A DNA stretch of 64,000 bases from Chiloscyllium plagiosum (GCF_004010195.1 NC_057748.1:16457829-16521828), one strand, 5' to 3'; shown: positions 12,288 through 36,166, numbered from the stretch's first letter. Made by a program: numbers and translations. The notes: generated from the sequence alone by a model not told the origin.

Positions 12288-12793
12288 CTGCTATAGGAAA
12301 GATGTTGTGGAACTTGAAAGGGTTCAGAAAAGACTTACAAGGAGGTTGCCAGGGTTGGGGGATTTGAGCTATAGGGAGAGGCTGAACAGGCTGGGGCTGT
12401 TTTCCCTGGAGCGTCGGAGGCTGAGGGGTGACCTTATAGAGGTTTACAAAATTTTGAGGGGCAGGGATAGGATAAATAGACAAAGTCTTTTCCCTGGGGT
12501 GGGGGAGTCCAGAACTGGAGGGCATAGGTTTAGTGTGAGAGGGGAAAGGTATACAAAAGACCTAAGGAGCAACTTTTTCACACAGAGGGTGGTACGTGTA
12601 TGGAATGAGCTGCCAGAGGAAGTGGTGGAGGCTAGTACTATTGTAACATTTAAAAGGCATTTGGATGGGTATATGAATAGGAAGGGTTTGGAGGGATATG
12701 GGCCGGGTGCTGGCAGGTGGGACCAGATTGGGTTGGGATACCAGGTCAGCATGGACAGGTTGGACCTAAGACTGTACATCTCTAAGACTCTAT
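12288..12793 (+). mobile_element. CR1 LINE 3' fragment
   Basis: LERVQKR..RLGLFSLERRRLRGDLIEVYK..NFFTQRVVRVWNELP. Confidence 0.88.
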
Positions 12794-13847
12794 AATCAGT
12801 GATGTTTTGGTAATGCCACTGGCCTATTAATTGAGAAACCTAAACTAAAACACTGGGAATATGGGTCAAATCCCACCATGGCAGACAGTGATTTTGTTTT
12901 TAAAATCTTGAATTAAAAAGATACGTCTTGAATGGTGTAAAAAACAATGTGTTTCACTAATTCAGAAGTCACATGACACCAGGATATAGTTCAAAAGCAG
13001 CTCTGAAAGTTTGTGATTTTAAATAAATTTGTTGGACTATAACCTGGTGTCATGTGACTTCTGATCTTGTCCACCGCAGTCCAACATGGGCATCTCCACA
13101 TTATGGTTCACTAATGACCTGGAGGGAAGGAAATCTGCCACCGCTACCTGACCTGACCAATCTGTGACTCCAGATCCACAACGATGTGGTTGACTTCTGG
13201 GTCATAAGGAATGGGCATAAATGCTGGTCCTGCCAGTGACACCCATATCCCATGAACAGGTAATAAACAAAATTGTACTTTTCACACCCGCTGGTTGTCT
13301 TAAAGTGCTTTACAGCCAATGGAACACCTTCTGAAACATAGTCACTGCTATATTGTAAGAATCACAGTGGCTAATTTGTGTTTGGCAAAGTCCCCCAAAC
13401 AGCAACGTGGTAATCTGTTTCTTTTGTGAAGTTGGTTAAGGGTTGACTTTTGTCAGGGCATTGGGGAGAAACCATCTCTTCAAAAAAGCACCTGAGAGGG
13501 CAGATCGGGCCTCTGCTAAACATTGCATTCAAATGCTAATACCTCCAACTGTGTGGCACTCCTTCTGAACTGCACTCAATTATCAGCTGTGTTCCTTTGA
13601 ACAGGGATACGAATCCAAAACCATGTGATTCACGGGCAAACATGCAACCAATGATCCCCAGTTGACATGAAGTGAGATAGATGTGTTCTTAACATAGCTG
13701 ACAACATGGACTTGACAGGGTAAAGGGCTATGCTGTAGATCTCTATGACTCAGCTGTGAACCTGTATCATGGGTGGTGTTCCCTTTCTAAGCAAAGGAAC
13801 CAAAGTTGGAAATTAAAAATGGAAAGAACAGCAGATGTTATAAATCA

Positions 13848-14058
13848 GAAACAAAAACAGAAATTGCTGGAAAAGCTCAGCAGGTCTGGCAGCCTCTGTG
13901 GAGGGAAGTCATTGTTAACATTTGGGTCAAGTGACCCTTCTTCAAAACTTAGTATGTTCTGAGGAAGGGCCACTCAATCCGAAACGTTAACTCTGACTTC
14001 TCTCCACAGATGCTGCCAGACCTGATGAGCTCTTCCAGCAATTTCTGTTTTTGTTTCA
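13848..14058. mobile_element. Palindromic Penelope-derived element (third family), hammerhead-like core at 13956-13991
   Basis: Imperfect ~100-bp inverted arms. The + strand reads gtt-CTGAGGA-..-GAAAC-GTT-aac. Confidence 0.65.
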
Positions 14059-16085
14059 TACCTAGGCATTCCTCACTTACTTTAAGACCACAACAGTTGG
14101 TGTTTCCTCACTGTCGGTTTCCGCTCACAGTCCAAAGATGTGCAGTTTAGGTGGATTGGCCATGCTAAATTTCCCATACTGTCCAGAGATGTGCAGGCTA
14201 AGATTAACCCTGGGAAAGTGCAGGGTTACAGGGATGGTATGGGTCAGGGTGGGAAGATCTTTGGAAGGTCGGTGTGGACTTGATGGTTCGAATGGCCTAC
14301 AACACACTGCCAAAGACTTTAAACAAAAACGCTTATTTAATCATTTGGGGAGCAATATTAAAAACAACACTGCTCAGCCTGTTTCAAGTGAAAACTACAA
14401 CCATAAACCCAAGAGTTATTAATAAATCCAAAAGGGAATTCCAAGTGAAACATTTTTTACGAAGGGGTTGGTTAGCACAATGGTTTACTTCTTTTAATGA
14501 AGGAACCCCATAACTTATTGTGAAATTCTGTGAAGCCCCAACAGGCACTCCCTGCTACCTCCCAATGTCTATATTTTACAAAACAAGAATGAAAATGAAG
14601 TAGAGAGCCATCGAACAAATGATTATCTTTTATTACCAACATGAGTTAGGAGTGGGAGTAGGCAACATGGTCTCTAGAGCCTCCTCTGCCATTCTGTACA
14701 ATTTTAGCTGATCTGATAGACCTAGCTTCCCACCTACACATCTCCCTTGTTTGTCAGGAATCTATCCACTTCTGCCTTAAAGGTATTCAAAGCTCCACTT
14801 GCACTGCCTTTCAAGGAAGAGTGTTCCAAAAAATTGGTGAGAAAAAGATCTCACCCTATCTCTGTTTTAAATAGCCCCCACATTTTAAAACAGCGTCCTA
14901 GTTCTAGGTTCCCCACAGCAATATGCCAAGGATCCCCAGATAGTGCCTTTCAAACACATGACCACTGCAATCTGGGAATTTGAGGGCAGCCATTGCTTGG
15001 GAACACCAAATCTAAGATGGTGGCAGTTAGGATGTTTCAGTCAGAGCTCATCCACTCTCTCCGTTTCTTTCTATGTCTTTCTTTCTGTCTCTTTTTGTTT
15101 CTATCTGGGTGTTTCTTTTGTTCATTTCTTCACTCACGGCCTCAGCATTGGAGAGGCATTGTCTTGGCCCAGCCTATGGCAGTCCCTTGGTCCTGTCTCT
15201 TGGTGGCCTGTCGTGATCTCTTGGTGGCACAAGGTGGTCTTTTGGCCCAGCTTGGCGGTGTCTCAAACCGGTGTCTGGGCAGTCCGTGACAGTGTCTTGC
15301 CCTAGTCCCTCAGCCCCGGTGTGGCGGTTTCTCGGTGTGCAAGTGGGTCCTGCCTGGGCATGTTCCAGAGGCAGCAGGAGGAGTTCGGGGAGGCAGCAGC
15401 TGCAGCAACAGCAATGGCATTATAGCCCGCTGTGTGAGAAGGGCTCGAGGTGAAGGACGTTCCTGGTATCTGAGGTGACAACATTGAGAACAGGTAGCTG
15501 AGCTAAGTGGAGGGCTATCAAAGACTGTTGAACTTTTCACTTTTTTCCTTGATTTTTCTAATTTATATTAAGAAGCGCTTTAATGTTAACTATTACCTTT
15601 TAAAAAAATGTTTCTACTTATTTTATGAATGTAATGCTTGACTTTTTAATTTTGTTTCTTTTACTACTTTGAGCCCAAGATGGCACCATGTGTGGCGGCA
15701 TTATGCACTTTTCACTGTACTCCTGTACGTGAGTACACATGACAATAAAATCTAAATCTAAATCTACAAGGGTTCCTCCAGGCCATTTACCATTCTGACT
15801 TGGAAATATCTCACCGTTCCTCTGTGTTGTTGGTTCAAAACCGCAGAACTCCCTCCCTAACAGCACTGTGGGGCCACCTATTAAGAATGAACTGCAGCGG
15901 TTCAAGAAGGTTCAAAATACTTCACGGCCATCTTCTTAAGGGCAATATGGAGTAGGCAAACATATGCTGGCCAGACAGTGATTCTCACACCCACTGAAGA
16001 AATGTTATAAAGGAAAAGGAAACACCTTTCTCACGTTCACCAGACCATGATGCCTCAGGACTTGTCTTAATCACTGTCCATGTTA

Positions 16086-16575
16086 GCCATACCTCAATAT
16101 GCAGAGCCAATCAAAGTGACTATCGATATGTTGCCAGGTTTGGAGGGTATGAGCTGTAGGGAGAGGCTGAATAGGCTGGGTCTATGTTCCCTGGAGGGTC
16201 AGTGGCTAACAAAATCATGAGGGGCATTGATAGGGTAAACAGTCAAGGTCTTTTTCCCAGGGTAGGTGAGTCCAAAACTAGATGGAACAGGTTTAAGTTG
16301 AGGGGGGAAAGGATATTAAAGGAACCTAAGGAGCAACGTTTTCATGCAGAGGATGGAGTGTGTATCAAATGAACTGCTGGAGGAAATGGTGGAGCTGGTA
16401 CAATTACAACATTCAAAAGGCAGCTGGATGGTATATGAATAGGTAGGGTTTGGGGGGATATAGGTTAAATGCTGGCAAATGGGACTAGATTAGATTAGGA
16501 TATCTGGTCGGCATAGACAAATTGGACCAAATGGTCTGTTTCCGTGCTGTACAGCTCTATTGGTCTATGACTTTA
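16086..16575 (+). mobile_element. Internally deleted CR1 3' fragment with a ~45-nt foreign head
   Basis: CR1 3' sequence. An inverted twin lies at 18346-18813. Confidence 0.75.
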
Positions 16576-17596
16576 TGTTGCAATTAAATCGCCTCTTCCT
16601 CTTCTAAACTCAAAATGTACGAATAATGAAAAGTATTTCAAGATAAAAATGACCTGAAAATTGTACGTAATACTTTCGTTATGCTGGGGGATCCCTTAGG
16701 CTTCTGGGGACTCTGGCTGTATAACAGACTAGGCTAGATTATGAAACTGAATACCACAGCAAGCTGTTGAATAATGCCAAATGAATGCAAAAGAGGAAAT
16801 TGAAACACAGGCAGGCATGGCTGGTCTAGATCTGTCTCCAGAGAGTGAATTCCATGCCTGACAACTGGCATGTGAAGAGAATCCGTAACTCTGCATTTCA
16901 AAATTGACATGTTGACGATGCTCTGATCCCGTTTCTCTTTAAGAGCTCCAACTGTTGCAGAAACCTCTCTGCACTGCTGTAATTGCAAGTGCACTTTAGG
17001 AAGGTGGGGGACTTCTGAAGTGATGAGGAAGAGCTGTGGGAAGAGAGACAAGGAACACTGGGACAAGGAACTCCTTTTTCTTTTTATTCCTGGTGACTAT
17101 TTGGAAAACCCCTACAATTAATGACTGTTTCTGTTCCCACTGAGGAACTATCTTTAAGTGGGGAATTCCCATGGTCCGTAGAATGGAAAGAAATATCCTT
17201 TTTTTTTTGGCGGACGAGTGACAAGAGTTTCATTATTAAAGGTGCTGATATTATTTTTCATAGATTAGTTCAACACATGACAAGGCCATTGAGTAATCTG
17301 GTCTGCACTGGCTCTTTTCAGCTGTCTTTAATTCCACTCCAGTTTTCGCTCCTCATATCCCTGTGATTTTCTTTCTTTCAAAATTTATTTGTGGCAAAGC
17401 AATTGAATGTGCCTTCACCACATTCTTGGGCAGTGCATTTCAAATCCTGAACATTTTACTCCTGCCACCCCTGTTTCTTTTGCCCTTTGCACAATATCCA
17501 CACCCTCTGCTTACTGAGGCTCTAAACATTGATATCTGTTTCTCTTTGTGTACTCATGCAAAACCTCTCCTGATTTTAAGCATATATTCAGTCAGA

Positions 17597-18970
17597 GAGT
17601 CATACAGCACAGAGGCAGACCAATCAGTCCAATAGTCCGGGCCAGCTATATTCTCAAACTAAACTACTCCCACCTGCCTGTATTTGGCCCATATCTCTCC
17701 AAACATTTCTTATCCATGTATTTATCTAAGTCTCTTTTAAAAGTTGTAACAGTACCCACATGCACCACTTTCTCTAGAAGTTCATTCCTCACACATTTCA
17801 CTCTCTGTGTAAAACAATTGCCCCTAAAGTCTTTTTTAAATCTTTCCCCTCTTACCTTAAAAATATGCACTGTAGTATTGAAATCCCTCAGTCGAGGGAA
17901 AAGACACCTTATCTATACCTCTTATGATTTTATAAACCTCTATAAGGTCACCCAGCAACCTCCTATGCTCTGGTGAAAAAAGTCCCAGCCTATTCAGCCT
18001 CTTCTTATAACTCAAACACTTTATTCCCGGCAACATCCTGGTAAATCTCTTCTGAACCCTCTCCAGCTTAATAATATCCTATAATGGAGGGACAAGAACT
18101 ATTCACAGTATTCCAGAAGAGGCCTCACCAATGCTCTGTACAAGCTCAGTGTAAAGAGCCCAAATCCTAAAATCAGAGGTCTGAGCAATGAAGGCAAGCA
18201 TGCTAAATGCTAAATTCTTAGCCACCCTATCTATGTAACTGAACCCCTAAGTCTCTCTGTTCTACAACACTACCCAAGGCCCGGCTTCTAATTGTGTAAG
18301 CCTTGCCTTTGTTTGTTTTAGCAAAATGCAATTTCTTGCATTTAGTGTCATAGAGTCATAGAGATATACGGCATGGAACAGATCCTTCAGTCCAACGCAC
18401 CCATGCCGACCAGGTATCCTAAAGTAGTCTAGCCCCATTTGCCAGCACTTGGTTCATATCCCTCCAAACCTTTCTTATTTATATACCCATCCAGATGCCT
18501 TTTAAATGTTGCAATTGCACCAGCCTCCACCACTCCCTCTGGCAACTCATTCCATACACACACCACCCTCTGTGAAAAGATTGCTCCTTAGATCCCCTCA
18601 ACTTAAACCTGTTCCATCTAGTTTTGGACTCACCTACCCTGGGAAAAAGACCTTGACCGTTTACTCTATCAATGGCCCTCATGGTTCGTTAGCCACTGAC
18701 TCTCTAGGGAAAATAGACCCAGCCTATTCAGCCTCTCCCTACAGCTCAAACCCTCCAAACCTGGCAACATATCGATAGTCACCTTGATTGGCTTTGCATA
18801 TTGAGGTATGGCTTTTCAACCTCTCTCTATAGCTTAAATCCTCCAACCCCGGCAACGTCCTTGTAAATCTTTTCTGAACCGTTTCAAGTTTCACAACGTC
18901 CTTTCAATTCATCCAAATTAACCCATCTGTCACTCTCAGCCCTTTGACCCAATTGATCAAGATCTCTTTG
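17597..18970 (-). mobile_element. Cluster of CR1 3' fragments
   Basis: Repeated CR1 ORF2 C-terminal motifs on the - strand, with GTCATAGA tails. Confidence 0.8.
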
Positions 18971-18977
18971 TAATTTC

Positions 18978-19293
18978 ATAGAAACCCTACAGTGTGCAAA
19001 CAGGCCATTTGGCCCAACATGTCTGAAGAGTAACCCACCCAGACCCACTTCCCTACCCTAATGCTCTAGATTTACCCCTGACTAATGTACCTACCCTACA
19101 TATCCCTGAACACTACGGGCAACGTAGTATTGCCAAAACACCCTGACCTGCACATCTTTGGACTGTGGGAGGAAACCGGAGCACCCGGAGGAAACCCACA
19201 CAGACACGGGGAGATTGTGCAAACTCCACACAGATAGTCACCCGACACAGGAATTGAACATGGGTCCCTGGTGCTGTGACGCAGCAGTGCTAA
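18978..19293 (-). mobile_element. HE1-type V-SINE
   Basis: V-domain GGACTGTGGGAGGAAACCGGAGCACCCGGAGGAAACCCAC. Confidence 0.8.
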
Positions 19294-19388
19294 TCTTAGA
19301 TAACCTTGTTCACTGGGAACTATACTATCAATCTTGGTGTCATCTGCAAATTTACAAATCGCACTTTGTATATTCACCTCTAAAATAT

Positions 19389-19857
19389 TGTTGGAGAAAT
19401 TCCCCAGACTCAGACCTTGTGTATTGACAAACTTATTGCATGATATCACAGGGAGCACACCTTTCCTAACCTTCAAAGCACTCTAGATCACCACGGATTT
19501 AGATAGTCCAACAAATGCCAAGCTGAACCACAAGATAATCACTAGAGGGCCTACGTGGCTATACACCAGTCTAAGGTCATACCTTGCCTAGAACTGTACA
19601 TTAACGAGCTATTGTTCTCAGACCTCGAGTCAATGCACACTACATTCACATGCTGATAATGTTTGGCTAAGTTGTCCTTTCGCCTAGCAAGTGTCTACAG
19701 AGAAACAGTTCATGAGTTATGTGGAAAAAGCAGAAGCTATGTGGTTGATTCAGACTGTTCTAACAGGCCAGGGCAGGGGGCCAAGCCAAGCGAGATCAAA
19801 ATCATGACTGACTAAAAATGGCTGCAAACAGGCAGTCCAGCAAAAACAGCTCCCACA
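19389..19857 (-). repeat. ERV 3' LTR
   Basis: Aligns end to end with 27796-28289 (about 20 differences in a ~200-nt stretch I counted, plus two indels elsewhere). Preceded on the - strand by the PPT. Confidence 0.93.
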
Positions 19858-19870
19858 ATCCCTCCTTTTT
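19858..19870 (-). other. Polypurine tract
   Basis: AAAAAGGAGGGAT on the - strand, directly abutting the TG of the 3' LTR. Confidence 0.85.
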
Positions 19871-19961
19871 GATCATAAGATCAAAACAACAGGTCAGGAT
19901 TACCTGCATAAGGGGAATGTAGCCGAAGCCTGGGGTATTATCCGATGCTAGAAGCTCGGAA

Positions 19962-21520
19962 TCAAAGGGGTAACCCATCTGTATCAGAGTGAGGGATTTC
20001 AGCGAGGGGGATTGTGACCATCTGGGAAGTTAATGGGACTGAGGGTAGTAATAGCAAGCTAAAGTGTGCACAACACTGATTAAGGCAGATGAAATAATGA
20101 CAACAAATATAATGAGGTCCTGCTAGAGACCCATTTCTAAGGGACCGAACCATCCACTCATCCAGCTCCACAGATCCCAAGGGGAGCTCGTGTCAATGTG
20201 CTTGGAGGCAGCCTTCCAAATGTGATTGGCAAGGTTGGGAATGTTCTCACTTGAGTTTGGAATATAGCTGCAACATTCAGAGCCAGTGAGGGCACAAGTG
20301 TCCCCTTTCTGGGCTACTGGATAATCAAAGGCCAATCTGTTTTATAGGACGACAGTCTTGAGGGCTGCTATTTCCTCAAGAATTGAGGCCAATTTCCTGA
20401 CCTCCGTTGCCAGTAGAGTGGTCCTATAAGACCACTGTGTGAAGAGAATGGCCAAGAATTTCTCAGTGTCAGTTATAGCTCTCTTGGTGCGAGGCCAAGA
20501 CCATTGGAACAGGGAGGAATGTGAGTCATAAGTAAAGGGAACTACATACCCTAGATAGGAACTACCCAAGTCCAGGGTAGGCCTTATGGTCACAAATGAA
20601 ATAGGTGCCATTATAAGTTCTCAAGTAATTGGTTCCAGTCCAAAGACTTGTGAACTTGGCACTTGTAGTAGTCTTGTTGAGAACTTCAAGGTTCAGGATA
20701 CTCCCAGCAGAAGTGGATCAGTGCACGGACGGGGTAAGAAGCAGGGAATGGGTACATTTACTGGTCCCAGCATTCCAGCCTGACATGTGACTGCTTTTAA
20801 AGCAGATGGTTCCCATGGGTGTACTCTTTCCTGTGGTATTAGTGAGGACCAGAGCTGGGGGTGTATGCCAGAGGTTGTGGTGAAGCCGGAACCAACCCTT
20901 ACACTTTTCCATATTATAACCTGCGGACTCCCAAGGGAACCTATTATTGGTGGCAGAATTGGCCCTGTCAGGGTCTCGCATAAAAGGGTTGTGAGACTCC
21001 CAGGCAAACCTACCCCCCCCGCAGGTAGACATATCGGAGGACCTGTTTTGTTCCAACCACATTCAGCTATTTTAGATTCCTTAAATGGGATGGGTGTCAG
21101 GGGTTTCCTCTCTTAGAGTGTATGGGGATATGGGCGCATACCCAGCAGCTAGACTGGTTAACCTTCTGTGTGTAAGTGTAAATCATGTGAAGAAAAGTGT
21201 TGACATGAACTCCATTGTGACAGAGTTCATCATTCCATCTTCCCTGTACCCCTCATGCCCAGTCAGCATGAACAAGGCAATATCAAGATTAGAGTGGTGC
21301 TGGAAAAGCACAGCTGGTCAGGCAACATCCGAGAAGCAGGAAATTCGATGTCCTGATGAAGGGCTTTTTCCTGCTCCTCGGATGCTACCTGACCTGCTGT
21401 GCTTTTCCAGCATCACTCTAATCTTGACTCTGATCTCCAGCATCTGCAGTCCTCACTTTCGCCTTTGAACAAGGCAATGAGGAGCACAGAGACTGAAATG
21501 GCGATCAGTCTCTAAATATT
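19962..21520 (-). pseudogene. env: ERV env, gamma-type, disrupted
   Basis: Hydrophobic leader split by a TE. SU CWVC (21136-21147). Furin site RTKR (20480-20491). Immunosuppressive-domain-like L*NRLAFDY..AQKG. CX6CC CALTGSECC (20270-20296), Trp-rich MPER and hydrophobic anchor. End coordinates approximate. Confidence 0.9.
21282..21465. mobile_element. Palindromic Penelope-derived insertion in the ERV env leader
   Basis: Inverted arms and 13-bp TSD TGAACAAGGCAAT (21269-21281 / 21466-21478). Shared family 3' end TGATCTCCAGCATCTGCAGTCCTCACTTTC. Confidence 0.85.
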
Positions 21521-24500
21521 GTGGATGGCGGGTGAGCTGATGCCTCTGGCGTTTTCTGCTTGTGTCCCTCTGGGGATGGCGCTCTCTTGCAGCAGGTTCC
21601 ATGCGTCCACTCAGGTCTTCCCTTGACCTTGACAGCCATCCGGCTTACCAGGAGGACGAGGTACGGGCCTTTCCACCTTAGAGAAAGGGAGTTCTTTTCC
21701 AATGATTTTATCATGACATAGTCCCCAGGTTGGAAGGGATGCATTGGGTCATCACTAGGTGCGGGAATGGCCTCCATTATCCGATCATAGGTATGGGTAA
21801 TCATCTTACAGAGTGCTTTGACATAATCCAGAACAGCTTCCTGTGTCAAGAGTAATGCCGTATCCACTGGAAATTTTGTAGACATTGGTCTCCCTCTCAG
21901 GATCTCAAATGAGGTAAGTCCTGTGGTTATGTTGACCATGTTTCTTATGGTATGCAGGACAAAGAGTAGGCCTTCTGGCGAAGGTAGACCCGTGTACTGT
22001 AAGATCTTTGTCAGAGTGGCTTTAAGGATACCATTCATCCATTCCACCATGCCTGAGCACTGGGGCTGATAGGGAATATGACATTTCTACACAATGCCTA
22101 GTGCTTTAGTAAAATTGTCTGTGACTGCCACGGTAAAGTGAGTACCTCTGTCACTGTTAATGCTCCCGAGAATTCTAAACTTAGGGATCACACCCTTCGT
22201 GAGGCATTTGACCACTGTTCTAGCATCATCTTTCCTTGTGGGGAAGGCCTTTACTCATTTAGAAAACATGTTAACAACACCCAACATGTACTTTAATCAC
22301 TGTAGAGCTGGCACGTGAATGAAATCATTCTGTAAATGATTAAACGGCTAAAGGTTGAGCATTACTGTTCTGTAGACATATTAGATATTTTGATACTTGT
22401 GCTGCTGCTGCAAAGCCTGGTCGGTACCAAGTTTGTAGTACTGCATGGATCATCCCTTCTTCTCCTGCATGACCGACCCCATGAGCGGCCAGTGCAAGAA
22501 CATGCAAGTAGGCTTTAGGACAAATGAACCTTCCATCAGGATGCACCATTAGCCCTAAAGGGGATTCCTTAGTTCCTATGCACATCCAACTATTGTTCTG
22601 AGCTTGTGGAGTGTGTTGCTGTGTAGTCTGCATCCCCTCTACTAGATCTAAAACCTTTGTTGCTTCCCCTGTCTTTGGAGCTTGTAGAATCCTTTCAGTG
22701 GGAGCTAATGCTGCTCACCTAGCAGCTTGGTCAGCGCGAGCATTCCCTCAGGCGATTGGGTCATCAGTGACGGTAAGGGAGGTGCACTTTATTTCCGCTA
22801 CGGCGGAGGGGAGCATAATGGCCTGAAAAAGATTATTGATGAGAATGGGAAGGCTGCAAGGGCCTTTCAGAAGAGGCAATAAATCCTCTGTTTCCCAGGG
22901 TTCCAAAATCATATACCACTCCAAAGGCATGTCTGGAGTTGGTACAAATGTTAACAGACCTCTTGCCAGCAAGGACACAGGCTCTGGTAAGGGCAGCCAG
23001 TTCGGCTGCTTGCGCAGAAGTCCCTTTGGTGATCGGAGGGTCAAAAAGAGGAGCCGTCTGTGAAAAGGATCATGTCTGGGTTGTCTAATGGAGTTCCAGA
23101 GAGGTCGGGATGCAGGGGGACAACTTCTAGGACTACATGCAGACAATCACGATCCTCTGCCGGGGAATGCTGTGTAACAGGGAGAAGGGTGGCAGGGTTT
23201 AAAGTGGGGGCATGCTGAAGCTTAAGATTAGTGAGAGAAAACAGGATGACCTCATAGCCAGTTAGCCTTGATGCCGTAAAATGCTGAGTCACTGCTGAAT
23301 TAAGCAGCAGGGAAACCGAATGAGGAACAAAAACTGTACAAGGATAATCCAGCACAATAGGGGTGGACGTTTTTACCATTACAGCAGCAGCCACCACAAT
23401 GCGGATACAGGCCGGCATTCCCCTCATAACAGGTGGTATCTGTACAGGTTAATAGACAACAGGGCATCAGAGATCCCCACGCAGTTGTATTAGAAAGCCG
23501 GACGCATATCCCTCCTTTTCGTTAATATACAGCTGAAAAGGCAGCGTGTAATCGGGGATGACCAGAGCAGCTGCTGAGGTTAGGCACCGTTTAAGTTCCT
23601 TAAAGGCTTGGGCCATTTCAGGTGTTCAGTTCAGTGAGGTTTGGCGAGGATGCCTGGCAGAGAGGCGCATCAATAACTCAATAGACCGGTATCCAGTGTC
23701 TGCAGTAATTCACCCATGCCCAAAAAGGACAACAGCTCAGTTTGTGTAAGGGGAGGAGAAGGGTTAATGATGGCTGCAATGCGATCTTGAGACAGTGCTC
23801 TGAGACCGTGCACACATTTGTAGCCCAAATATTGTGCTGTGTTTTGGCAGAGTTGCATTTCTTCAACAGAGACCTTATATCCGTCCTGAGCCAGACGGTG
23901 TCGCAATGCAAGAGTATCACACACGAAGACATCAAGAGGCCACTAATAAATCATTGGCGTACTGAACCAAGGTGCTTTTACATGGCACTTGGAGGTCCTT
24001 CAGGGTCCGGTGTACCGCAGACGCATATACAGTGTGGCTCTCCGTGTATGCTTGGGGAAGCTGTGTCCGTGTATACTGGCGGCTGCCCTAAGTAAAGGCA
24101 AAAAGGTATCCAGTGATAGTTTAATGGAGAGAAAGGCCGAACCGAGACAGAAAAACTATTGGTAGCAGAAGGGAGGCTAGCAAGGATGGCATTGGTGTCT
24201 GGCACCACTGGGGAGCATGGTGGCACAGTGGTTAGCACTGCTGCCTCACAGCGCCAGAGACCCAGGTTCAATTCCCGCCTCAATGTGTGTGGAGTTTGCA
24301 CATTGTCCCTGTGTCTGCGTGGGTTTCCTCCAGGTGCTCCAAAAATGTGCAGGTTAGGTGAATTGGCCATGCTAAATTGCCCGTAGTGTTAGGTGAAGGG
24401 GTAAATGTAGGGGTATGGGTGGGTTGCTCTTTGGAGGGTCGGTGTGGACTTGTTGGGCCGAAGGGCCTGTTTCCACACTGTAAGTAATCTAAATCTAAAC

Positions 24501-25450
24501 AATGGCATTGACTGCCCTCAACTCCTGCACAAATCTCCACCATACTGGTTTTCCTGTATTAGGAATAGGGAGGATAGGAGTTTTGCAGAGGCTAATGGTA
24601 GGCACCAGGAGGCAATCAATAACTGGTTTTATACCTTCATTGGCAGCTGGTGACAAATTGTACTGTCTGATAGATGGTCTGATGCCCCCATGTTTCACAG
24701 TGACCGTATGAGGCGGAGTCATTGGAGTGCCGTGCCCATAATGATGGTGGCACATTATTGAGCAATAAGGGACTGTCATAGGAGGGGCAGAGTTGCAGGG
24801 TCTGCAAGGTAAACGTCATATCTTCAAATGAGGGAAAACAATGTAGACAAAACTCCTCCTCTCCAAAACAGGAAATCCGCATGGTGGTCGGGATCCACAG
24901 GGTCCAGGGGGTTTCAATTCCTTCAGCAGACTGCAGAGTCCGTGCACCATGGGTCCCAAATCCTTTGGGTGCCACGGGGCTTTAACAATGATTGAAACCA
25001 TGAGGAAATGAGGAGGGATTATATCGGAAAAGCGGTCTTTGTTCGGCATTGAGCTGAATGTCAGCAGTCATGGCGGCCTATAAAAGTGGAATCGGAGAGC
25101 TCCAAGGTGAGGCCCTGTGGAGAGCAATGAATGGAGGCATTAAGTTTGCAGACAGTCTAGTGGCTGAGAAGGGCCACCGGGCAGGAAAGGGAGATTATAA
25201 CAGTGTTGGGGACCGCCGATGGACCAATGACAATAGGAATGTGGAGGGGTAGAAAGACAATCAACCATGGGCAGACCAGAGACACCCACGGTGGAAACTG
25301 TGTCAGAGCTGAGAGGAAGGGCCGCTGAAGGAGGCGCTGGGTAGCTCCAGAGCCCACCAAAACCGAGACAATATGACCCCTCATCTCAACCCCTCATCTC
25401 AATATGACCCCTCATCTCTGACAGGTAATGGGAGAATCGTATTGAGATGA
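21505..25450 (-). pseudogene. pol: ERV pro-pol (protease, 2H-like segment, RT, RNase H, integrase), disrupted
   Basis: Protease LV(G)SGAT and CPVALL. RT motifs RQY-L, WRFVQELRAVN, LPQAYTES, and QYANDLLVA (decayed YxDD, 23950-23961). Tether LNPATLLP, RNase H FTDGSS. Integrase SDRGTHFT, GMVE-MNG-LK and RWKGPY. Many stops and frameshifts, and a SINE insertion. Confidence 0.92.
24210..24499 (+). mobile_element. HE1-type V-SINE inserted into ERV RT
   Basis: Same SINE sequence. Splits RT between RAVNAIV and PVVPDTNAIL. Confidence 0.88.
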
Positions 25451-25744
25451 CCTGCAAAATCTTCCTTATGCAGCAGCTCGAGACATTAGGGATGTGGGGA
25501 AAAGGGTCGTGAAGAGTACACATGGCCTGTCGTGGCTGTCGTGGGGGTGGGTAAGCCTCTTTTTCCTTCTTGTAATCGAAAAGACCCTGTCGATCCATAT
25601 TGGTAAGGGCAGTGAGGAGGGGATCCCAGTTCATCTGCCAGTTGAGGTTATAGGATTTGAAGGTCTGGGCGCGATGGGGCTCCGGCAGTTGACAGAAGTT
25701 TGGACCGCTGAACAATCATTGTCTGAGAGAGGTATGCCTGCAGA

Positions 25745-25898
25745 TTAGATTAGATTAGATTACATTACAGTGTGGAAACAGGCCCTTCGGCCCAACAAGT
25801 CCACGCAGACCTGCCGAAGCGAACCCACCCATACCCCTACCCCTACATTTACCCCTTACCTAACACTACGGGCAATTTAGCATGGCCAATTCACCTGG
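25745..25898 (-). mobile_element. HE1-type SINE 3' half at the junction of the gag duplication
   Basis: (TTAGA)n tail and CAGTGTGGAAACAGGCCCTTCGGCCC. Confidence 0.8.
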
Positions 25899-25937
25899 CC
25901 CTGCAGCAAAATCTTCCTTATGCAGCAGCTCGAGACA

Positions 25938-27501
25938 TTAGGGGTGTGGGGAAAAGGGTCGTGAAGAGTACACATGGCCTGTCGTGGCTGTCGTTGCGGG
26001 GGAAGTTGGTGGTGCTGCTGTTGAGGGGTGGCTGGACTGGCATTCTGGCACCCAGTGGCCTATTTTCCCACATGCTCTGCATCTGACTCTGCTTTTATCC
26101 CTGTGTTGCTGTCCCTTTCCCTGGCTTTGTCCCTGATTCCACGCCTGTGTTAATCGGGTGGGGGTGGGTAAGCCTCTTTTTCCTTCTTGTAATCGAAATG
26201 ACCCTGTCGATCCATATTGGTAATGGCAGTGAGGAGGGGATCCCAGTTCATCTCCTGCCAGTTGAGGTTATGGGATTTGAAGGTCTGGGCGCGATGGGGC
26301 TCCGGCAGTTGACAGAAGTTTGGACCGCTGAACAATCATTGTCTGAGAGAGGTATGCCTGCAGATGATTCCCAAACTTCCTTAAAGTGAGCAAGGAAATC
26401 AAGTGTAGGCTCATTCGCCTTTTGCAGACAGCGCATGACTACTCCAAAGTCTGCCTGTTGACATGCTGCTGTCATAATGGCAGGCTTAACGGTATCCACA
26501 AGCCAATTTGCTTGTACATCTGCATCAGTCTATGGCGTCTGGGGGAATTCAAGGGAGCTTTTTATGACTTCCCAATGGGTCCCATACACCAGATGTTTTA
26601 AAGCCTGGACGTCCTGTGGCAGGCAATTATAAATACTGCAGATTTGTACTAGCCAATTATAAAATGGTATCGGGCGTTTGAGTGGATCAGAGCATGCCGT
26701 GGACCTCAGTAAGGGTTCAAGGCTTCTCGAGGGGCGTGTTGCTGATCATTACCCGCGGTAACTGAATGGTGGGCTTCGTCGTCGAGCATGTGGCATGTCT
26801 TTTGGTGCTCGTGGAGAACACGGTGGAGTCGGATTCTTCCTGACCTTGTCTCCCCAGCGGCACCCACTTCGGCCACTTGTTGTTGTTGAAGGAAAGAATT
26901 CTCAATGAGATCCTCTTGGCCTTGGAGGTGGGCTGGAGGATGAGTAGCAACAAAAGCGACAATTTCGTTCATAAGAGGGTCTGGGTCGAGGGTGCAGATG
27001 GGAACTTTAGGATACTAAGGGGTATAAGATGTTGGGGCAGAAGTTGTGGACCCAGAAGACGAAAGGTAGTCGAGCAGCTGACAGGGGTCTTTATTTTTAG
27101 GGAGCTGATGGCTTTTCGCAACTTCTTTAAATTTAGCTAAACATCGGAACATGTAATCAGTATTCCAAGAGGAATCACCGTAACAACCCTTAATGTTTAT
27201 CCTCTAATAATCAATGTTTTCCAATTTAAAGGAACCTCCATAAGGCCAGTTCCAGTGGGACCACCCATATAAGTCGGAAGTGAAAGCAATAACATATCTA
27301 CTGTCCCCTGTTTCCTTCCAACCAATATTGGCTGGTGACCCTAGTGGCACCAGGGGGATTCCTACCTTATTTTTGCATCGAACATATTTACTGTGGCACT
27401 GCTGCATCTTTATTGAGGGGAGAAATGGACGTGGGCCTTCCTTCTCGGCAAGACATGGTTTAACTTGTCCCCGAGGCCGGCCCACCAGTTGTTGACCCCA
27501 T
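25938..27501 (-). pseudogene. gag: ERV gag (frameshifted)
   Basis: Possible MG start at 27501. Matrix-type WPYGGSF motif. Major-homology-region-like QKANEPTLDFLAHFKEVW. Single zinc knuckle CRACGKIGHWVPEC (26040-26081). TAA at 25938-25940 in the NC frame. Confidence 0.85.
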
Positions 27502-27774
27502 TGTTGCTTCCTCAGTTCCGAAGCACGGATCTACGATCTGTGGAGAAATGAACAACAAACATACAAAGACTGACAAGCCAGCACTGGCGCCATTGTCAAT
27601 CCCTCAAGGTCACCTTAAAATGATTTCTGTCCTACAACACCGATCTTTCCATGCGCGCCTTGTCACAGCATCTCTCCCTAACTTGGGATATGCGTGTCGA
27701 CTCAGGTTTGGATTACACAGGCAGCCTTGTTTTAAAAACTACTGCAGGTTTGCTCAGAATTCCGTAATTAAAGG

Positions 27775-27792
27775 ATCCTGGCGACTACACCA
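27775..27792 (-). other. Primer binding site complementary to tRNA-Ser
   Basis: The - strand reads TGGTGTAGTCGCCAGGAT, 3 nt after the LTR. 16/18 complementary to the vertebrate tRNA-Ser(AGA/TGA) 3' end ATCCTGCCGACTACGCCA. Confidence 0.8.
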
Positions 27793-27795
27793 GAT

Positions 27796-28289
27796 TGTTG
27801 AACAAAGTCCCTATACTCAAACCTTGATTATGACAAACTTTGTTGCATGATATCATGGGGAGCACACCTTTCCTAAGCATGGTCCAGTGCTACTCCAAAG
27901 CACTCCAGATCACTGCGGATTTATATAGTACAACAGATGCTGAGTTGAACCACAAGCTAGTTACTAGAGGGCCTACGTGGCTATACACCAGTCCAAGGTC
28001 TTGCCTTGCATAGAACTGTACATTAACGAGCTTTTGTTCTCAGACCTTGAGTCAATGCACACTATGTTCGCACACTGACAATGTTTGCCTGAGTTGTGCT
28101 TTTGCTTAGCAGGTGTCTACAGAGAAACAGTTCATGAGTTATGTGGGAAAAGCAGAAGTTATGTGGCTGTTACAGAATGTCCTAACCGGTCAGGGCCACC
28201 GAGGGCAAGGGGCCAAGCCAAGTGAGAATAACACCATGACTCACTAAAAATGGCTGCAAACAGGTAGTCCAGCAAAAACAGCTTCCACA
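27796..28289 (-). repeat. ERV 5' LTR
   Basis: Direct-repeat partner of 19389-19857, with TG/CA ends. TATATAAA on the - strand at 27920-27927. Immediately followed by the PBS. Confidence 0.93.
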
Positions 28290-28974
28290 AACATTTATAT
28301 AAATGACAAACAAAAGTGGACCCAGCACCAAAACTTTCATTTAAATTATGAATGTAGATTGTAAATACAATAGTTGAAATCCCGGCACTAATCCATGTGT
28401 CAATCCATTACTTAAAATTTGCCAACCTGAAAATGGCCTATTTATCTCGACTACAAGTAACATGTAAATCAAATCTCTTTGAATACAGAAGACTTTCTTA
28501 CTTTCTCCTGTCTATCCACATAACTGTAACCTTTCAGCTCTGGGTAAATTTCCTGTGTATACTCCAAAGCTTTCAGATCCTTCTTAACCTGTATTGACTT
28601 AGCACACAAGCCGAACAAGTGGTTTCTAACTTCCTCCCATTTGTAATCATTGCCTCTATTCATAAAGCTCCTAATCCCACATGCCTCATTAATTGCTGTG
28701 TAAACCTATCCTGCTACCTTCCTGCCATGACATGTGCACAGATATCCAATTGTCACCCTGTTTTGAGACTGTACCTTTCAGCTTAAATCGCCTTCCTGTA
28801 TTCTTCTCATAAAATGAAATGCCTTCTGTCTTGAATTTCATTGGCAGTGTTATTTCACCCATTCCATCAGCTTCCCTGTATCTTCTTGAAGCCAATTTTT
28901 GGATTCTAAACAGTTTCTGAACCTTTCAAATTTTGTGTCATCTGCAAACTGCAGAACTGCACTTTGTATCTCCA

Positions 28975-29195
28975 ACTTTTTCACACAGAGGAATGAGCTG
29001 CCAGAGGAAGTGGTAGAGGCTGGTACAGTTCCAGCATTTAAGAGGCATCTGGATGGGTATATGAATAGAAAGGTTTAGAGGGACATGGGCCAAGTGCTGG
29101 CAAATGGGACTAGATTAATTTAGGATATCTGGTTGGCATGGACAAGTTGGACTGAAGAGTCTGTTTCTGTGCTGTACATCTCTGTGACTCTGTGA
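28975..29195 (+). mobile_element. CR1 LINE 3' end
   Basis: Matches other CR1 3' UTR copies in the window. Confidence 0.75.
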
Positions 29196-30988
29196 CTAAG
29201 TCATTAATGTGTATCAAAAACGAAAGTGGTCTTCGGACTATGCATTGGGGAGGAGCACTATAAAAGAGCACAAGAAATAGAAGCAAGTTTAGATCATTCA
29301 GCCCATTGAGCCTACTACGTTCTGGCCGATTGAGGCTGACCTTGGGCTTCAACTCAACTTTCCTGCCCGCTCTCCATACTTTTTGATGCCCTGAGAAAGT
29401 CTATCTATCCCAGCCTTAAACATGTTCAATGCCAAAGCATCCACCACCCTTTGGGTAACAAATCAAAATGATGTTTATTCAGCTTTTAAATTTACAATGC
29501 TCACTTAACTGCTGCGCACTACCTCAAACTATTTTTTCTCACTGTTGAAGATTTCTGTCTATGGCATATCAATTCTGCCACATGGATGTTACATCCCGGG
29601 GTATAATGTCTTGTAAATATCAGACTGTTTCTTGGCCTTATTGTTGGCACAGACTACAAGTGTAGGATAAAAGAATTAAGATTGCTGCCAATGATAACAG
29701 GCACAGGCCTGCTTGATGTGCTGCCTGCAGTCACAAACCAGCTGTTCCTTGGGAACATTACAGTTATTAGCCGAGTAGGCCATTCGGTCCTTCAAAACTG
29801 CTCTGCCAATCAATACAATCACAGCTGATCTGGTCATAGTATCAGCTTCACCTTTGTTTGACGACCCCATACCCTTAACTCCCTTGCCTATCAAAAGTTG
29901 AATAAGTTCAATGTTCCAACCTCCATTGCTTTCTGAGGGAATGAGTTCCATACAGTAACCATCCTCTGAGAGAAACACAACGCAATCGCCATCTTAGGCA
30001 GGAGATTTTTGTTTGCAACGGTGTTCTCTAGCTCTCATGCCCCTCACAAGAGGAGACATCCGTCCTGTCAGATCCCCTCAGGATTCTGTCTGTTTCAATT
30101 AGACTACCTCTCTTCCTTCTAAAGAAAGACCAGGACGTACAACACTATAAAATACATCCTTCTGTGCATGGATGAGTTGAGCAAACCTTTGGTGAACTGC
30201 TTTATGTTGTATCCTTTCTTAAATAATGAGTTCAAAGCTGCACACAGTGCTGTTTGCATGTGGTCTCACCAAGGCCTTGTAGAGATGTAGTAAAGTGTCC
30301 CTAACCAGTATATTCCAATACCCTTGCAAGAAACATCAGCAATCCATATTTTCATAATCCCTTGCTGTACCTAAACTCTAACATTTAGTGGTTTATATCC
30401 CAGGGCACTCAGATCCCTCAGTTCCACCAAGTTCTGCAATATCTCTCCATTAAATATTATTGCTGCTTTTCTATTCTTATTGCCGAAGTGGAATAATTCA
30501 CATACTCGAATTAGAATTAGATTTAGGTTTATTGTCATTCAAGTACAGGAATACAGGAGAACAGTGAAAAGTTTACAATATCGCCCTTAATGGTGCCATT
30601 TTAGGTACACAGTATCTCAGTACAAAGCTTAGACACAAAATAGAGAAATTTTAAAAAAGTTACATTACCTTACAGTGATTCATAGTATAAGTTGAAAAAT
30701 AAGAGATACTCCATCTGACAAATTTTTGCTGAGTCATTTAATTTATATTCCTTTGTAGCTTATTTACTTGTTTTTGACACCATAGTAACCCACCAATCTT
30801 GATGAGATTGGCAAGTTTAATGACCGTACATTCAGTCCCTTTGTCATCATTGAAGTTTTAAATTGCTGAAGCTCCTAGCATTGATCCTACTGTGGCACTC
30901 CACTCCCACGCCTCCAGCTATTACATTGTGTAATATTCTTTGATGTAACACCTTAACAAATGCCTTTTAGAAATGCAAGTTTTTTTTT

Positions 30989-31259
30989 AGATTACATTAC
31001 AGTATGGAAACATGCCCTTCGGCCCAACAAGTCCACACCGACCCGCCAAAGCGTAACCCACTCATACCCCTACATTTACCCCTTACCTAACACTACGGGC
31101 AATTTAGCATGACCTGCATATCTTTGGACTGTGGGAGGAAACTGGAGCACCCGGAGGAAACCCACGTAGAACGTGCAAACTCCACACAGTCAGTCGCCTG
31201 AGGTGGGAATTGAACCCGGGTCTCTGGCGCTGTGAGGCAGCAGTGCCACCGTGCCGCCC
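30989..31259 (-). mobile_element. HE1-type V-SINE
   Basis: As above. Confidence 0.8.
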
Positions 31260-31584
31260 ACCGTTCCCTGCTATGATTTCCGCAAAGCACTCTAGTAAAT
31301 TAGTTAAACATGATTTCCCATTTACAAAACCATGTTGACTCTGCCTGATCCCATTATCATTTTCTAAACATTGTGCTCTCTCAGCATTTCTTTAGATGAA
31401 GATTTTAAGAAGGTTGTACTTGTCATTTCCAGGCTCGCTGATTGGCTAGTCAGCAGGGTGCTTAGATTCTTCCACAGTGGGTCACGTGGAGGTGAATGGA
31501 TCTGCCCTTCTCCACCCTTCCACCTTCGTGCCGAATGCTCGCTCAGTCTCAGAGGAGACCGAAGCACTCCTGATTTGTGTAGTC

Positions 31585-32072
31585 CCAATATAAGAATGGC
31601 ATTATTAAACCGGAGACGGCTTATCAAAGACTTACCAGGATGTTGCCAGGAATGGAGGGTTGGATGTATAATAATAAACTGGAAAGTCTGGGACTTTTTT
31701 CATAGGAGCATAAGAGATTGAAGGGGTGACCTTATTGAAGTTTATAAAATCATGAGGGGTGTAGATAATGGCAGTTACCTTTCCTCTAGGGTAGGAGATT
31801 TCAAGACTGGGGGCATACCTTTAAGATGAGAGGAGAAAGATGTTAAAAAGACGTGAGGGACAACTTTTTTTACACTGAGAGTCGGTCATGCATGAAAAGC
31901 TCTGCCAGAGGATATGGTAGATGCAGGGATGGTTACAATGTTTAAAAGACAGATAGGAACGTTTTGGAGGGCTATGGACCGAACACAGACAGGTGGGACT
32001 AGCTTAGTTGGGAACATGATTGGCATGGACTGATTGGACTGAAGGGTCTGTTTCCATGCTCTATGACTCTAT
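31585..32072 (+). mobile_element. CR1 LINE 3' fragment
   Basis: GGTGACCTTATTGAAGTTTATAAAATCATGAG and CTATGACTCTA tail. Confidence 0.75.
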
Positions 32073-32084
32073 CTCCAGGTATCT

Positions 32085-32490
32085 GGATCCAGGGCCCATG
32101 CTTCCCATTGGCAATGGTGAATGTTCCATGCAGAAAGGGACTTCTTCAGGGAATACCTAAAAGGTCTGTGTGGGCTCCCTCTGTTAGATTAACCAATGGT
32201 CAGCCCTCTGTACACTATGATCTTGGGCAGGCAGCTATCATCCATCTCGGCAACATAATCTGCCCATCACAGTTGGCTGGTATGTCCTTGATGATGTTGG
32301 CTATTTCCACGACTCAAATATTTGTGATTAGATCTTTCCAGGGGATCTTGAGGATGCTGCAGAGTTAATTCTGGAGGATGGGCTCTAGAAAGCGAACATA
32401 TCACCTGTATCACCATAGGACCCATGGCTCAGGCCCATACTGAAGGGTGGTGTGGACTGTGGCTCTGTACACTTTGAGTTTGCTCAGCTC
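32085..32490 (-). mobile_element. Probable RTE-clade LINE 3' fragment
   Basis: The - strand has LKVYRA.. and RLPK-I-Y-type peptides typical of RTE ORF ends. Highly decayed. Confidence 0.4.
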
Positions 32491-32755
32491 CACACTTGTT
32501 TGTAGTGCCTGCTGTTTGCTTTTGAAAGTCTATTCGCTATTTAGCATCATACAGCATGAAAACAGAGCCTTGGGCCCAATTCATTCATGCCAGCCATATT
32601 TCCTAAACAGAATGAGGCCCATTTACCTGCTTTTGGCCCATATCCCTCTAAACCTTTCCTATCCATGTACCTGTTCAAATGTCTTTTAAATGCTGTAATT
32701 GTACTTGCCGCTACCACTTCCATCAATACACCAGTTTCTTGCCTCTGGTGGAATT

Positions 32756-32953
32756 GAGCTGAAAATGTGTTGCTGGAAAAGCGCAGCAGGTCAGGCAGCA
32801 TCCAAGGAGCAGGAGAGTCGACGTTTCGGGCATGACCAGGGTCATGCCCGAAACGTCGACTCTCCTGCTCCTTGGATGCTGCCTGACCTGCTGCGCTTTT
32901 CCAGCAACACATTTTCAGCTCTGATCTCCAGCATCAGCAGTCCTCACTTTCTT
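32756..32953. mobile_element. Perfect palindromic Penelope-derived insertion
   Basis: 82-bp perfect inverted arms with a 2-nt spacer (32756-32921). TSD TCTG(G/A)TGGAATT. Confidence 0.85.
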
Positions 32954-33052
32954 TCTGATGGAATTGAACAAGGAGGCCCTTCTCAAAGCAGTAAATTGTT
33001 TGATGGCTTCTAGCTCGTGTACTACTGATAATGTTTGGTGGAATCATAGAAT

Positions 33053-33372
33053 AGGAGAAAGTGAGGACTGCAGATGCTGGAGATCAGAGCTGAAAATGTT
33101 TTGCTGGAAAAGCGCAGTAGGTCAGGCAGCATCCAAGGAGCAGGAGAATCGACGTTTTGGGCATGAGCCCATCTTCAGAATGAGGAGAGTGTGCCAAGCA
33201 GGCTAAGCTAAAAGGTAGGGAGGAGGGACTTGGGGGAGGGGCATTGGAAATGCGAACCCTCGAACTCAGCACCACCTTCCTCGCCTGCAATCTTCTTCCT
33301 GACCTCTCCGCCCCCACCTCCATTCCGGCCTATCACCCTCACCTTAACCTCCTTCCACCTATCGCATTTCCA
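33053..33372 (-). mobile_element. Penelope-derived pseudo-LTR fragment with internal inversion
   Basis: Matches 8907-9143. The last ~110 nt switch orientation. Confidence 0.7.
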
Positions 33373-34546
33373 AGGAGCCTGTACTGTGCTGTATTGTTCT
33401 ATGTTCTAAAGTATAATTTACACTTATTAATGATTCAATTTCATTGTAAGTATATACACAAGAATAAAGTGAACACTGGTAGATAAATACTGAAAATGTA
33501 AGAAATAAGAGTGGGCCATTCAGTCCATCAAGCCTGCTCTGTCAATAAACAGATTATGGCTGATAACCTACCCCTATGCCATTTTCCACTTTCTATTGAT
33601 TTCTGTCTTGAACCTGCTCAGTGCCTGAGCTTCCACAGCCCTATGGCATATGAATTCTAAATATTTACAATCAGCTGAGAGAAGAAATCCCTACTCATTC
33701 TAGTTTTAAATGGGATACTCTTGGTTTATGACTCATCAGCCAGGAGAAGCATCCTATTCACATCTACTCTGTCATACCCTGTCATTATTAAACTTTCTCA
33801 ATGACACATATACTCCTCCTTAGATAAACTGTACACAGTGCTGTAGGTGCAGTCTCATCATGACTCTATACAATTGTAGCAAGATATCCTTGTTCCTGTA
33901 CCTACTTCCCTTTTTATTGAAGCCAACATTCAATTTACTTATCAAATTTCTTGCTTTATCTGTCTGCAATCTTTTTGTGACTCATTATGAAAAGTGCCCA
34001 GGTTCATTTGATCATCAACAATTCCCAACCTCTCATCATTTAAGAGAGAGATTCTGCGTTTCTGTTTATATTTCTACCAAAGTGGATAATTTCACAATTA
34101 CTCACTCTATATTCCATTCACTCAGCCTGTCTAAATCCCTTGATGCGTCCTTTCTCTCTCCTCACAGCCCACACTTCCACCTGAGTATTTCTAGAGCTTT
34201 TCTGCACCATATCTTTTGGATAACCTATACGTTTGTCAAGGAAGACTTTATGTATAAGTCAACCATAATGTTTTTGGCTTAAGAAAACCATGCCGGTTTT
34301 GTGTTCGCATCAAATGTGGAAATATGCCAGTTGATTCCAATATGCAAATCATTGATCGGAATTGTGAGCAGATGTCTTCAAAGCACTGATTCGTTTGGTA
34401 CCCCACTGGTAACAACCGACCATCTTGAGAATAGCCTGTTTATTCCTCTGCCCCTTTTCTGTCTATTAACAATTCTCAATCCAGAGTAGTATACTACTCC
34501 CAATCCCATGTAGTTCGATTTTGTTTACTAACCTCTTGTTTGGCGC

Positions 34547-35101
34547 TGAAGTAACTGCACAGAGGCAGATATCCCATTATCAAATCACCCTTTATTTACA
34601 TGTGTACAATATACTGACTGTGGCCAGCCAGCTCAGAGTCAGTCCCTGAATTGAGGAGATTCTGAATTCCCTGTTTATGTTTTTTGTAACCTATTTTCCT
34701 AATCAACCTGTTCAGAGATTTTATTCGAGCTGAAAATGTGTTGCTGGAAAAGCGCAGCAGGTCAGGCAGCATCCAGGGGCTTATGCCCGAAACGTCAATT
34801 CTCCTGTTCCCTGGATGCTGCCTGACCTGCTGCGCTTTTCCAGCAACACATTTTCAGCTCTGATCTCCAGCATCTGCAGTCCTCACTTTCTCCTCAGAGA
34901 TTTTATTACACAGCTTTGGAGCAGGTGGGACTTGAACTTGGGTCTCTTGGTTCAGGGGGTAGGGTCACTACATCTGAATCACAAGAGGGCCCTTAGTCCC
35001 CTGTTTATGTTGGTCAGCCAGGGCTTCCCAATTGGCCCAGGTTAACAAACCCAGTCAAGGGGGTCATAGTAAGTAAGGTCTACATGGTTCAAATCACTAC
35101 A
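34547..35101 (-). mobile_element. Solo LTR of the same family, split by nested insertions
   Basis: The - strand begins TGTAGTGATT and ends GTTACTTCA. Interrupted by a short SINE-like element flanked by CCCTGTTTATGTT, which is itself interrupted by the 34726-34893 element. Confidence 0.6.
34726..34893. mobile_element. Palindromic Penelope-derived insertion
   Basis: Inverted arms and 14-bp TSD TCAGAGATTTTATT (34712-34725 / 34894-34907). Confidence 0.85.
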
Positions 35102-35905: not shown

Positions 35906-36166
35906 GGGCGGCATTGTGGCTCAGTGGTTAGCATAGCACAAGGGACCTGGGTTCAATTCCTGCCTCAGGTGACTGTCTGTGTGGGTTTTCTCCCACAATC
36001 CAAAGATGTGCATGACAGGTGAATTGGTCATGCTAAATTGTCCATAGTGTTAGGTGCATTAGACAGGGGTAAACATAGGGGAATAGGTCTGGATGGGTTA
36101 CTCTTTGGAGGGTAGGTGTGGACTTGTTGGGCCAAATGGCCTGTTTCCTTACTGTAGGGGATCTAA
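35906..36166 (+). mobile_element. HE1-type V-SINE (internally deleted)
   Basis: tRNA head plus tail. Confidence 0.72.

Follow-up and report, generated by a model that had tools for sequence, protein, structure and literature searches.

What retroviral element does the first coding intron of a shark immune gene (Chiloscyllium plagiosum) contain, when did it arrive, and has its host put it to any use? The window analysed here, that is, the whole stretch of 64,000 nucleotides (GCF_004010195.1 NC_057748.1:16457829-16521828), had been described from sequence alone as holding a structurally complete, old endogenous retrovirus (ERV) of an epsilon-related shark lineage. We consider it highly probable that the element is a single, dead, simple class I provirus with a gamma-type env, lying antisense in the first coding intron, which likely entered ~60-120 My ago and has likely decayed neutrally since.

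The provirus occupies 19389-28289 on the minus strand (Table 1). Both LTRs of the sequence-only reading are present, run from TG to CA and agree at 407 of 468 aligned bases (87%), with 38 transitions, 23 transversions and 4 gaps between them (K2P distance 0.145 +/- 0.019). The differences are spread evenly along their length, at 10-13 per 100 columns. The polypurine tract (PPT) and the serine primer binding site (PBS) were likewise borne out: a pattern derived from the PBS led to 117 metagenome loci, in which ARAGORN called 107 tRNA-Ser genes, and the site differs by 2 mismatches from the commonest 3' end of the matching tRNA genes (119 of 137 matches). ARAGORN called no tRNA gene in the window, and the sole Rfam match over 18900-28500 was at chance level (mir-2007, E 0.54). 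The 5-bp target duplication also holds, as an imperfect one: the two copies agree at 4/5 bases, with a probability of about 1.7% by chance, and both flanking 5-mers map onto one set of five bases, 8819-8823, in a LINE copy of the window that has no interruption. Since the flanks are the two halves of one LINE and share these five bases, we conclude that they mark a single integration with a 5-bp duplication. The locus combines paired TG...CA LTRs, PBS, PPT and duplication with the gene order gag-pro-RT-RNase H-IN-env.

Table 1. Features of the provirus, its later insertions and the host gene (window positions).
Feature	Position	Strand	Remarks
Host B7-family gene, first coding exon	11386..11438	+	CpG-rich stretch; C. 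plagiosum model begins 11281
First coding intron, holds provirus	11439..41043	+	29,605 nt, GT...AG
Target duplication, downstream copy (ATATT)	19384..19388	-	Followed by 3' half of the same LINE fragment
3' LTR	19389..19857	-	469 nt, TG...CA
PPT	19859..19870	-	Ahead of 3' LTR
Gamma-type env remnant, broken	20040..21500	-	N-terminal CWVC, RTKR, ISD-like stretch, CX6CC, TM anchor
High-copy hairpin repeat in env leader	21282..21465		13-nt duplication on its flanks
pol remnant (RT, connection, RNase H, integrase with MLVIN_C)	21505..25060	-	Broken by many stops and frame changes
SINE in RT	24212..24497	+	Junction also in organism C and, borderline, organism B
Protease remnant, broken	25091..25390	-	30% to P0001, E 2e-6
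Gag-end event	25454..25905	-	5'-truncated SINE (25746-25905), then second copy of 25906-26366 without knuckle
gag remnant, broken	25938..27501	-	Putative start at 27501
PBS, tRNA-Ser (AGA/TGA/CGA type)	27775..27792	-	16/18 match; starts 3 nt past 5' LTR
5' LTR	27796..28289	-	494 nt, TG...CA; TATA-like motif at 27927
Target duplication, upstream copy (ATGTT)	28290..28294	-	At end of the LINE fragment's 5' half
Signal peptide exon	41044-41102	+	
IgV exon	42057-42398	+	
IgC, TM and two cytoplasmic exons	up to 53415	+	Borders of these four approximate

Completeness applies to this outline and not to the genes, which are broken throughout: the longest stop-free stretch in the provirus measures 193 codons, and all proviral genes are dead. 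In a rough alignment, pro-pol shows about 10 frame changes and 14 stops, env 3 of each, and the catalytic motifs of protease and RT are degenerate. Nevertheless, each gene can still be recognized. In gag, the piece at 26251-26529 has Gag_p30-like features (cluster score 0.94, lead-level), and the single CCHC knuckle reported earlier was found at ~26037-26084, where zf-CCHC (E 0.004) misses the Pfam cut-off. Protease, RT, RNase H and integrase follow in order against the intact relative P0001, as the sequence-only reading had it for pro-pol. Among single-frame translations with stops marked, RT_RNaseH_2 fell just below its Pfam cut-off, and rve and MLVIN_C scored above theirs. Gag_p30, RVT_1, RVP and TLV_coat were not found by Pfam in the three stop-marked frames, because the pieces are too short and decayed. 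The capsid (lead-level), the single knuckle (below cut-off) and the MLV-type integrase C-terminus (above cut-off) are all features of class I viruses. The frame past the gag stop continues into the stretch ahead of the protease, in a region that is duplicated and broken.

The env motifs described earlier are present in frame translations, and the remnant is colinear with the intact relatives P0229 and P0230 at 34-60% identity. Every mark of a gamma-type Env was seen, namely a CXXC in SU, a furin site, an ISD-like stretch, a CX6CC and a TM anchor. Named viruses resemble it in TM only (24-29%). Between the end of TM and the 3' LTR lie ~203 nt, where no accessory ORF was found, in agreement with the claim that no room exists for one.

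Env relatives vary at the start of this gene: in P0226, P0228 and P0229 a furin-like site lies just upstream of CWVC, the leader ahead of this first site ranges from ~25 to 140 residues, and P0229, the whole one, also has the SU/TM furin site.

Three later insertion or duplication events, all missing from the first description, interrupt the provirus. Besides the SINE in RT, the end of gag carries a duplicate of ~460 nt that follows a truncated SINE and has a short shared motif at its bounds, and the second copy has lost the 165 nt that held the zinc knuckle. The two copies are ~98% identical, with 5 mismatches in 293 aligned bases and two gaps. With so few mismatches, we judge this duplication to be recent, far younger than the provirus; an assembly artefact is ruled out by the 5 substitutions and two gaps between the copies. 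The third event is the hairpin repeat in the env leader, which found no real Rfam match. Its 13-nt target duplication suggests that it is probably a retroposed element rather than a MITE. The repeat is presumably Penelope-related. At its edge, far-set contigs of A and C (see below), taken to be other copies of the family, come to an end. Relatives of this repeat occur elsewhere in the window, at ~32767-33155, 34738-34894, 46750-46820 and 49862-49967.

In order to place the virus, five natural single-frame pol pieces (three from RT, one from the connection and one from integrase) were each analysed separately, against references that included WDSV, WEHV-1, SnRV, SSSV, BaEV, RD114, REV, Mo-MLV, KoRV and puma foamy virus, together with the loci L003 and L014, which we take to be a Xenopus ERV and WEHV-2. 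Trees were built from 52 of the 120 proteins listed, a set without class II viruses and ZFERV; in the connection tree 5 rows, both foamy viruses among them, were dropped for coverage. The three RT pieces fell into one clade (support 100/99 with 42 rows and 97/99 with 22 rows) together with ERV proteins of sawshark, newt, fire-bellied toad, wrasse, tuna, mackerel and icefish. The connection piece joined the same clade (100/98, 35 rows), with the sawshark protein P0030 nearest at 57%, and the integrase piece the same group at SH-aLRT 91 in a quick tree of 49 rows. RT groups with gamma and epsilon viruses, away from foamy viruses and SnRV, in trees that hold no class II rows. The intact relative P0029 scores ~497 bits with the RT of MLV/XMRV, versus 183 with foamy virus and 75 with HIV-2. 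The provirus did not fall inside the MLV/KoRV/BaEV/REV clade in the RT, connection or integrase trees, so it is no Gammaretrovirus, nor did RT join SSSV, the two forming separate clades at 100/99 each in a tree without ZFERV. Class I membership, as proposed at the outset, hence finds four of the five pol pieces in a strongly supported class I clade and the integrase piece more weakly so, and no RT tree, all lacking class II rows, put the provirus outside class I.

A closer tie to the epsilonretroviruses has to be weighed against these trees. The provirus might be a true Epsilonretrovirus, kin to WDSV/WEHV, having exchanged its env and shed its accessory genes. In the quick integrase tree its clade does stand beside WDSV/WEHV, albeit at SH-aLRT 85 only, and two of the three RT pieces have WDSV as their best match among named viruses. 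On the other hand, AU tests on RT rejected forcing the pieces with WDSV/WEHV (p 0.004) as well as forcing the whole clade with them (p 0.039), the RT and connection trees keep these viruses apart from the provirus clade, and the connection piece scores higher with gammaretroviruses. RT and integrase thus disagree on the sister group, and the deep class I branches are weakly placed. Considering these results, we regard membership in Epsilonretrovirus as unlikely, and the pol sequences point to a class I provirus that is neither gamma nor epsilon proper.

The comparison with WDSV and WEHV leads in the same direction. They share a class I pol with the provirus, and their gag ends in a stop followed by pro-pol in the same frame. 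However, they form a separate RT clade, show 28-43% identity over the pol pieces and use another primer site. The WDSV env is a frame of 1,229 codons with neither CXXC nor CX6CC (PMC9967133), unlike the gamma-type env seen here, so these motifs do not mark epsilon envs as had been assumed. After env, the WDSV locus L002 has two ORFs of >300 codons in the place of the short spacer of the provirus. One simple fish retrovirus with a CXXC/CX6CC env does share the env type; it nevertheless forms its own strongly supported clade, resembles the provirus env in TM only (26%) and carries its CXXC in the middle of SU instead of at the N-terminus, the N-terminal position being a known variant of gamma-type Env (PMC9967133). 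The label 'epsilon-related' therefore stands only as loosely as it is applied to most class I ERVs of fish, and fails as kinship with WDSV/WEHV, which RT rejects.

Nor is the lineage a chondrichthyan one, as the same clade also contains ERVs of teleosts and amphibians. Its strongly supported RT and connection members (P0030 from sawshark, P0031 from Lissotriton, P0063 from Bombina, P0035 from Xyrichtys, P0017/P0022/P0025 from Thunnus/Scomber/Gymnodraco, and P0001/P0029) share 44-64% identity with the provirus over the better-matched pol pieces. These relatives are open reading frames and probably young, whereas the provirus is dead and sits on a long branch. Proteins from Mustelus, Mobula, Amblyraja and Heptranchias fall in other clades of the RT tree. 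Xu et al. 2018 (PMC6001957) found the retroviruses of cartilaginous fish scattered over the tree through host switches.

The description of this group as thin was overstated. Chen et al. (bioRxiv 10.1101/2021.11.23.469661) described epsilon-related class I ERVs with a gamma-type Env and without accessory gene (ERVs-GTE) in fish and amphibians, in 37 species of which 6 are cartilaginous fish, and reported, for Chiloscyllium, 46 orthologous groups without being able to date them. Our provirus has all of their features, from the class I pol and the gamma-type env (ISD, CX6CC, TM) to the lack of an accessory gene, and comes from the same genus, while we found no three-species or B7-intron locus described there. 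The provirus is thus a new, or possibly an already listed, member of the ERVs-GTE, and the locus may be among the 46 groups. Han 2015 (PMC4422223) reported epsilon-like ERV lineages in Callorhinchus milii, the elephant shark. Of these, CmiERV II and III resemble the provirus as cartilaginous-fish ERVs clustering with epsilon-like viruses, a likeness by description and not by sequence, and they differ in LTR divergence (0.024-0.033 versus 0.145). A further screen covered 12 chondrichthyan genomes, and Chiloscyllium is absent from its main text (PMC10699275). We found no publication on this particular locus in a literature search that was thin on subscription papers.

Outside the sharks, the protein P0036 from the hagfish Myxine glutinosa groups with class I pol. 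For jawless fish, PMC6001957 reports a snakehead-related clade only, and PMC10699275 an epsilon-like ERV from another hagfish.

The host gene belongs to the B7 family, with an IgV-IgC-TM build. Its exons in the window equal the C. plagiosum 'ICOS ligand-like' protein XP_043535789.1 except for splice-edge residues and one further position, and differ more from the proteins of C. punctatum, H. ocellatum and whale shark. As the gene lies on the plus strand with a GT...AG intron at 11439-41043, the minus-strand provirus is intronic and antisense to it, exactly as first read. An antisense bias of intronic ERVs is known from mammals. The name 'costimulatory-ligand gene' is sound as to the B7 family and not as to costimulation, since annotations split between ICOS ligand-like in some sharks and CD276-like in the orthologues of others; ICOS ligand (E 3e-29) comes out slightly ahead of CD276 (2e-26) when single IgV-IgC structures are compared. 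The gene may have an upstream non-coding exon.

Orthologues vary in build. H. ocellatum isoform X2 (P0011) joins another first exon, contributing two residues only, to exon 2. P0002 (Heterodontus, 435 aa) and P0003 (Leucoraja, 414 aa) are longer, and P0002 matches the IgV exon twice, suggesting an IgV duplication in some lineages.

Of the 24 listed sequencing runs, 20 contain the stretch whole or in part; they come from three organisms (A, B and C) and 7 studies. Contigs were compared over 16600-25750, with 24 of ~561,000 contig pieces listed, and were sorted by divergence into a near and a far set. In unique flank, A differs by 0.6%, B by 3.1% and C by 4.5%. Among the 24 listed pieces, the near set holds 6/7 proviral pieces of A (0.6%), 6/7 of B (~4-7%; 123/2456 bases, 5.0%) and 4/7 of C (~4.5-7.7%; 135/2063 bases, 6.5%). 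The remaining proviral pieces lie at 12-15% and, judged by this distance, appear to be other copies of the family. One contig of C runs from RT 44 nt into the SINE and one of B 32 nt, with the SINE border as drawn here, and none of the 24 listed pieces from B or C crosses an LTR-flank junction. The low divergence of the pieces and the shared SINE junction make it likely that the same provirus is present in A, B and C, and that its insertion predates their split. In run X1, depth was ~16-120 over the provirus versus 7-9 in unique flank (bins free of high-copy repeats), depth not being equal to copy number; the evidence for other copies is confined to the 12-15% pieces.

An intronic provirus beside an immune gene raises the question of whether its LTRs were co-opted, as enhancer or antisense promoter, to tune the B7-family gene. 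The persistence of both LTRs in the first intron, the TATA-like motif retained in the 5' LTR and the H. ocellatum isoform P0011 with its other first exon would agree with such a role. However, the 3' LTR piece of organism B differs by 4.3% versus 3.1% in unique flank, and the internal pieces too diverge faster than the flank, in a comparison that uses one 1.1-kb flank contig per species. As the proviral pieces have diverged faster than their surroundings, the sequence comparison gives no hint of co-option; the provirus is likely inert, and we see only a slim chance that its LTRs serve the gene.

The claim that the provirus is old is upheld by the LTR distance, which amounts to 2.8-4.6 A-B distances and 2.1-3.1 A-C distances. 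The bamboo shark rate of 1.02e-8 per 9.5-year generation (PMC9826928) gives an age of 68 My, and the dS of 0.061-0.111 between whale and zebra shark over ~50 My (PMC13100897) gives 65-118 My. If organism B, which is known by code only, were C. punctatum, with a split at 20.9 Ma (PMC7677710), this indirect calibration would yield 58-96 My. The rates published for sharks span a factor of five or more: at the 2.2e-10 per year applied to elephant shark (PMC4422223) the age would be ~330 My, and the 7e-10 per generation from an epaulette shark pedigree (PMC10587355) likewise points to an older date. The family splits towards whale, zebra and nurse shark fall before 66 Ma (PMC8529718). We therefore believe that the insertion likely took place roughly 60-120 My ago, with an upper bound left open-ended by these slower rates. 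That the provirus exceeds 100 My, uncatalogued and in two shark genera, with LTRs, PBS, duplication and three genes still visible, we regard as doubtful. If true, a serine-primed class I lineage that moved among sharks, bony fish and amphibians, and whose open reading frames persist in tuna and mackerel, would have to be at least Cretaceous in age.

These dates presuppose that the LTRs are a true pair. If they came from two different proviruses joined by recombination, the element would be younger than their distance implies, and the mismatch in the target duplication would fit such a joining; other family copies differ about as much as the LTR pair does (12-15%). Nevertheless, the flanks are halves of one LINE fragment that overlap by exactly five bases on the uninterrupted copy, the differences are even along the LTRs, coding decay is heavy and the SINE in RT is common to another species, all of which makes a recombined pair highly improbable. 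Serine primer sites occur in class III elements, a point in favour of a class III or snakehead-retrovirus-like element that carries a class I env. Such recombinants are reported from frogs (PMC8278194), yet this last reading is barely conceivable and is refuted by the pol trees, since none of the trees joins a pol piece to SnRV or foamy viruses and the integrase piece has 23% identity to SnRV versus ~52% to its nearest class I relatives.

We thus return to a single class I provirus and propose the following course. Judging by what retroviruses have in common, reverse transcription would have started from tRNA-Ser, Gag-Pol would have arisen by reading through the stop of gag, and an Env with SU and TM linked by a disulfide would have let the virus into cells. 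It integrated into the LINE fragment with a 5-bp duplication and would have become fixed by drift, the copy being tolerated because it lies antisense and would be removed with the intron by splicing. At least three related shark species would then have inherited it, along with a few other copies of similar age, and since entry it has taken up the three later insertions and has likely decayed neutrally.

Ordinary in kind, the provirus offers neither a new mechanism nor an intact gene, nor any demonstrated influence on the immune gene that surrounds it; its age and its sharing across species are the only points of specialist interest. Its use is that of a dated fossil. In the slow genomes of sharks it can still be read with LTRs four to six times as divergent as those of the elephant shark copies in the literature, and the cross-species insertion, in which the nested SINEs would serve as time marks, could be used to calibrate a class I lineage found across sharks, teleosts and amphibians.

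The remainder of the window holds decayed LINE fragments with RT-like frames at 37180-39254 (intron 1) and 58466-59455, and two runs of N outside the provirus (9144-9614 and 55870-56421), which are assembly gaps or masked stretches.
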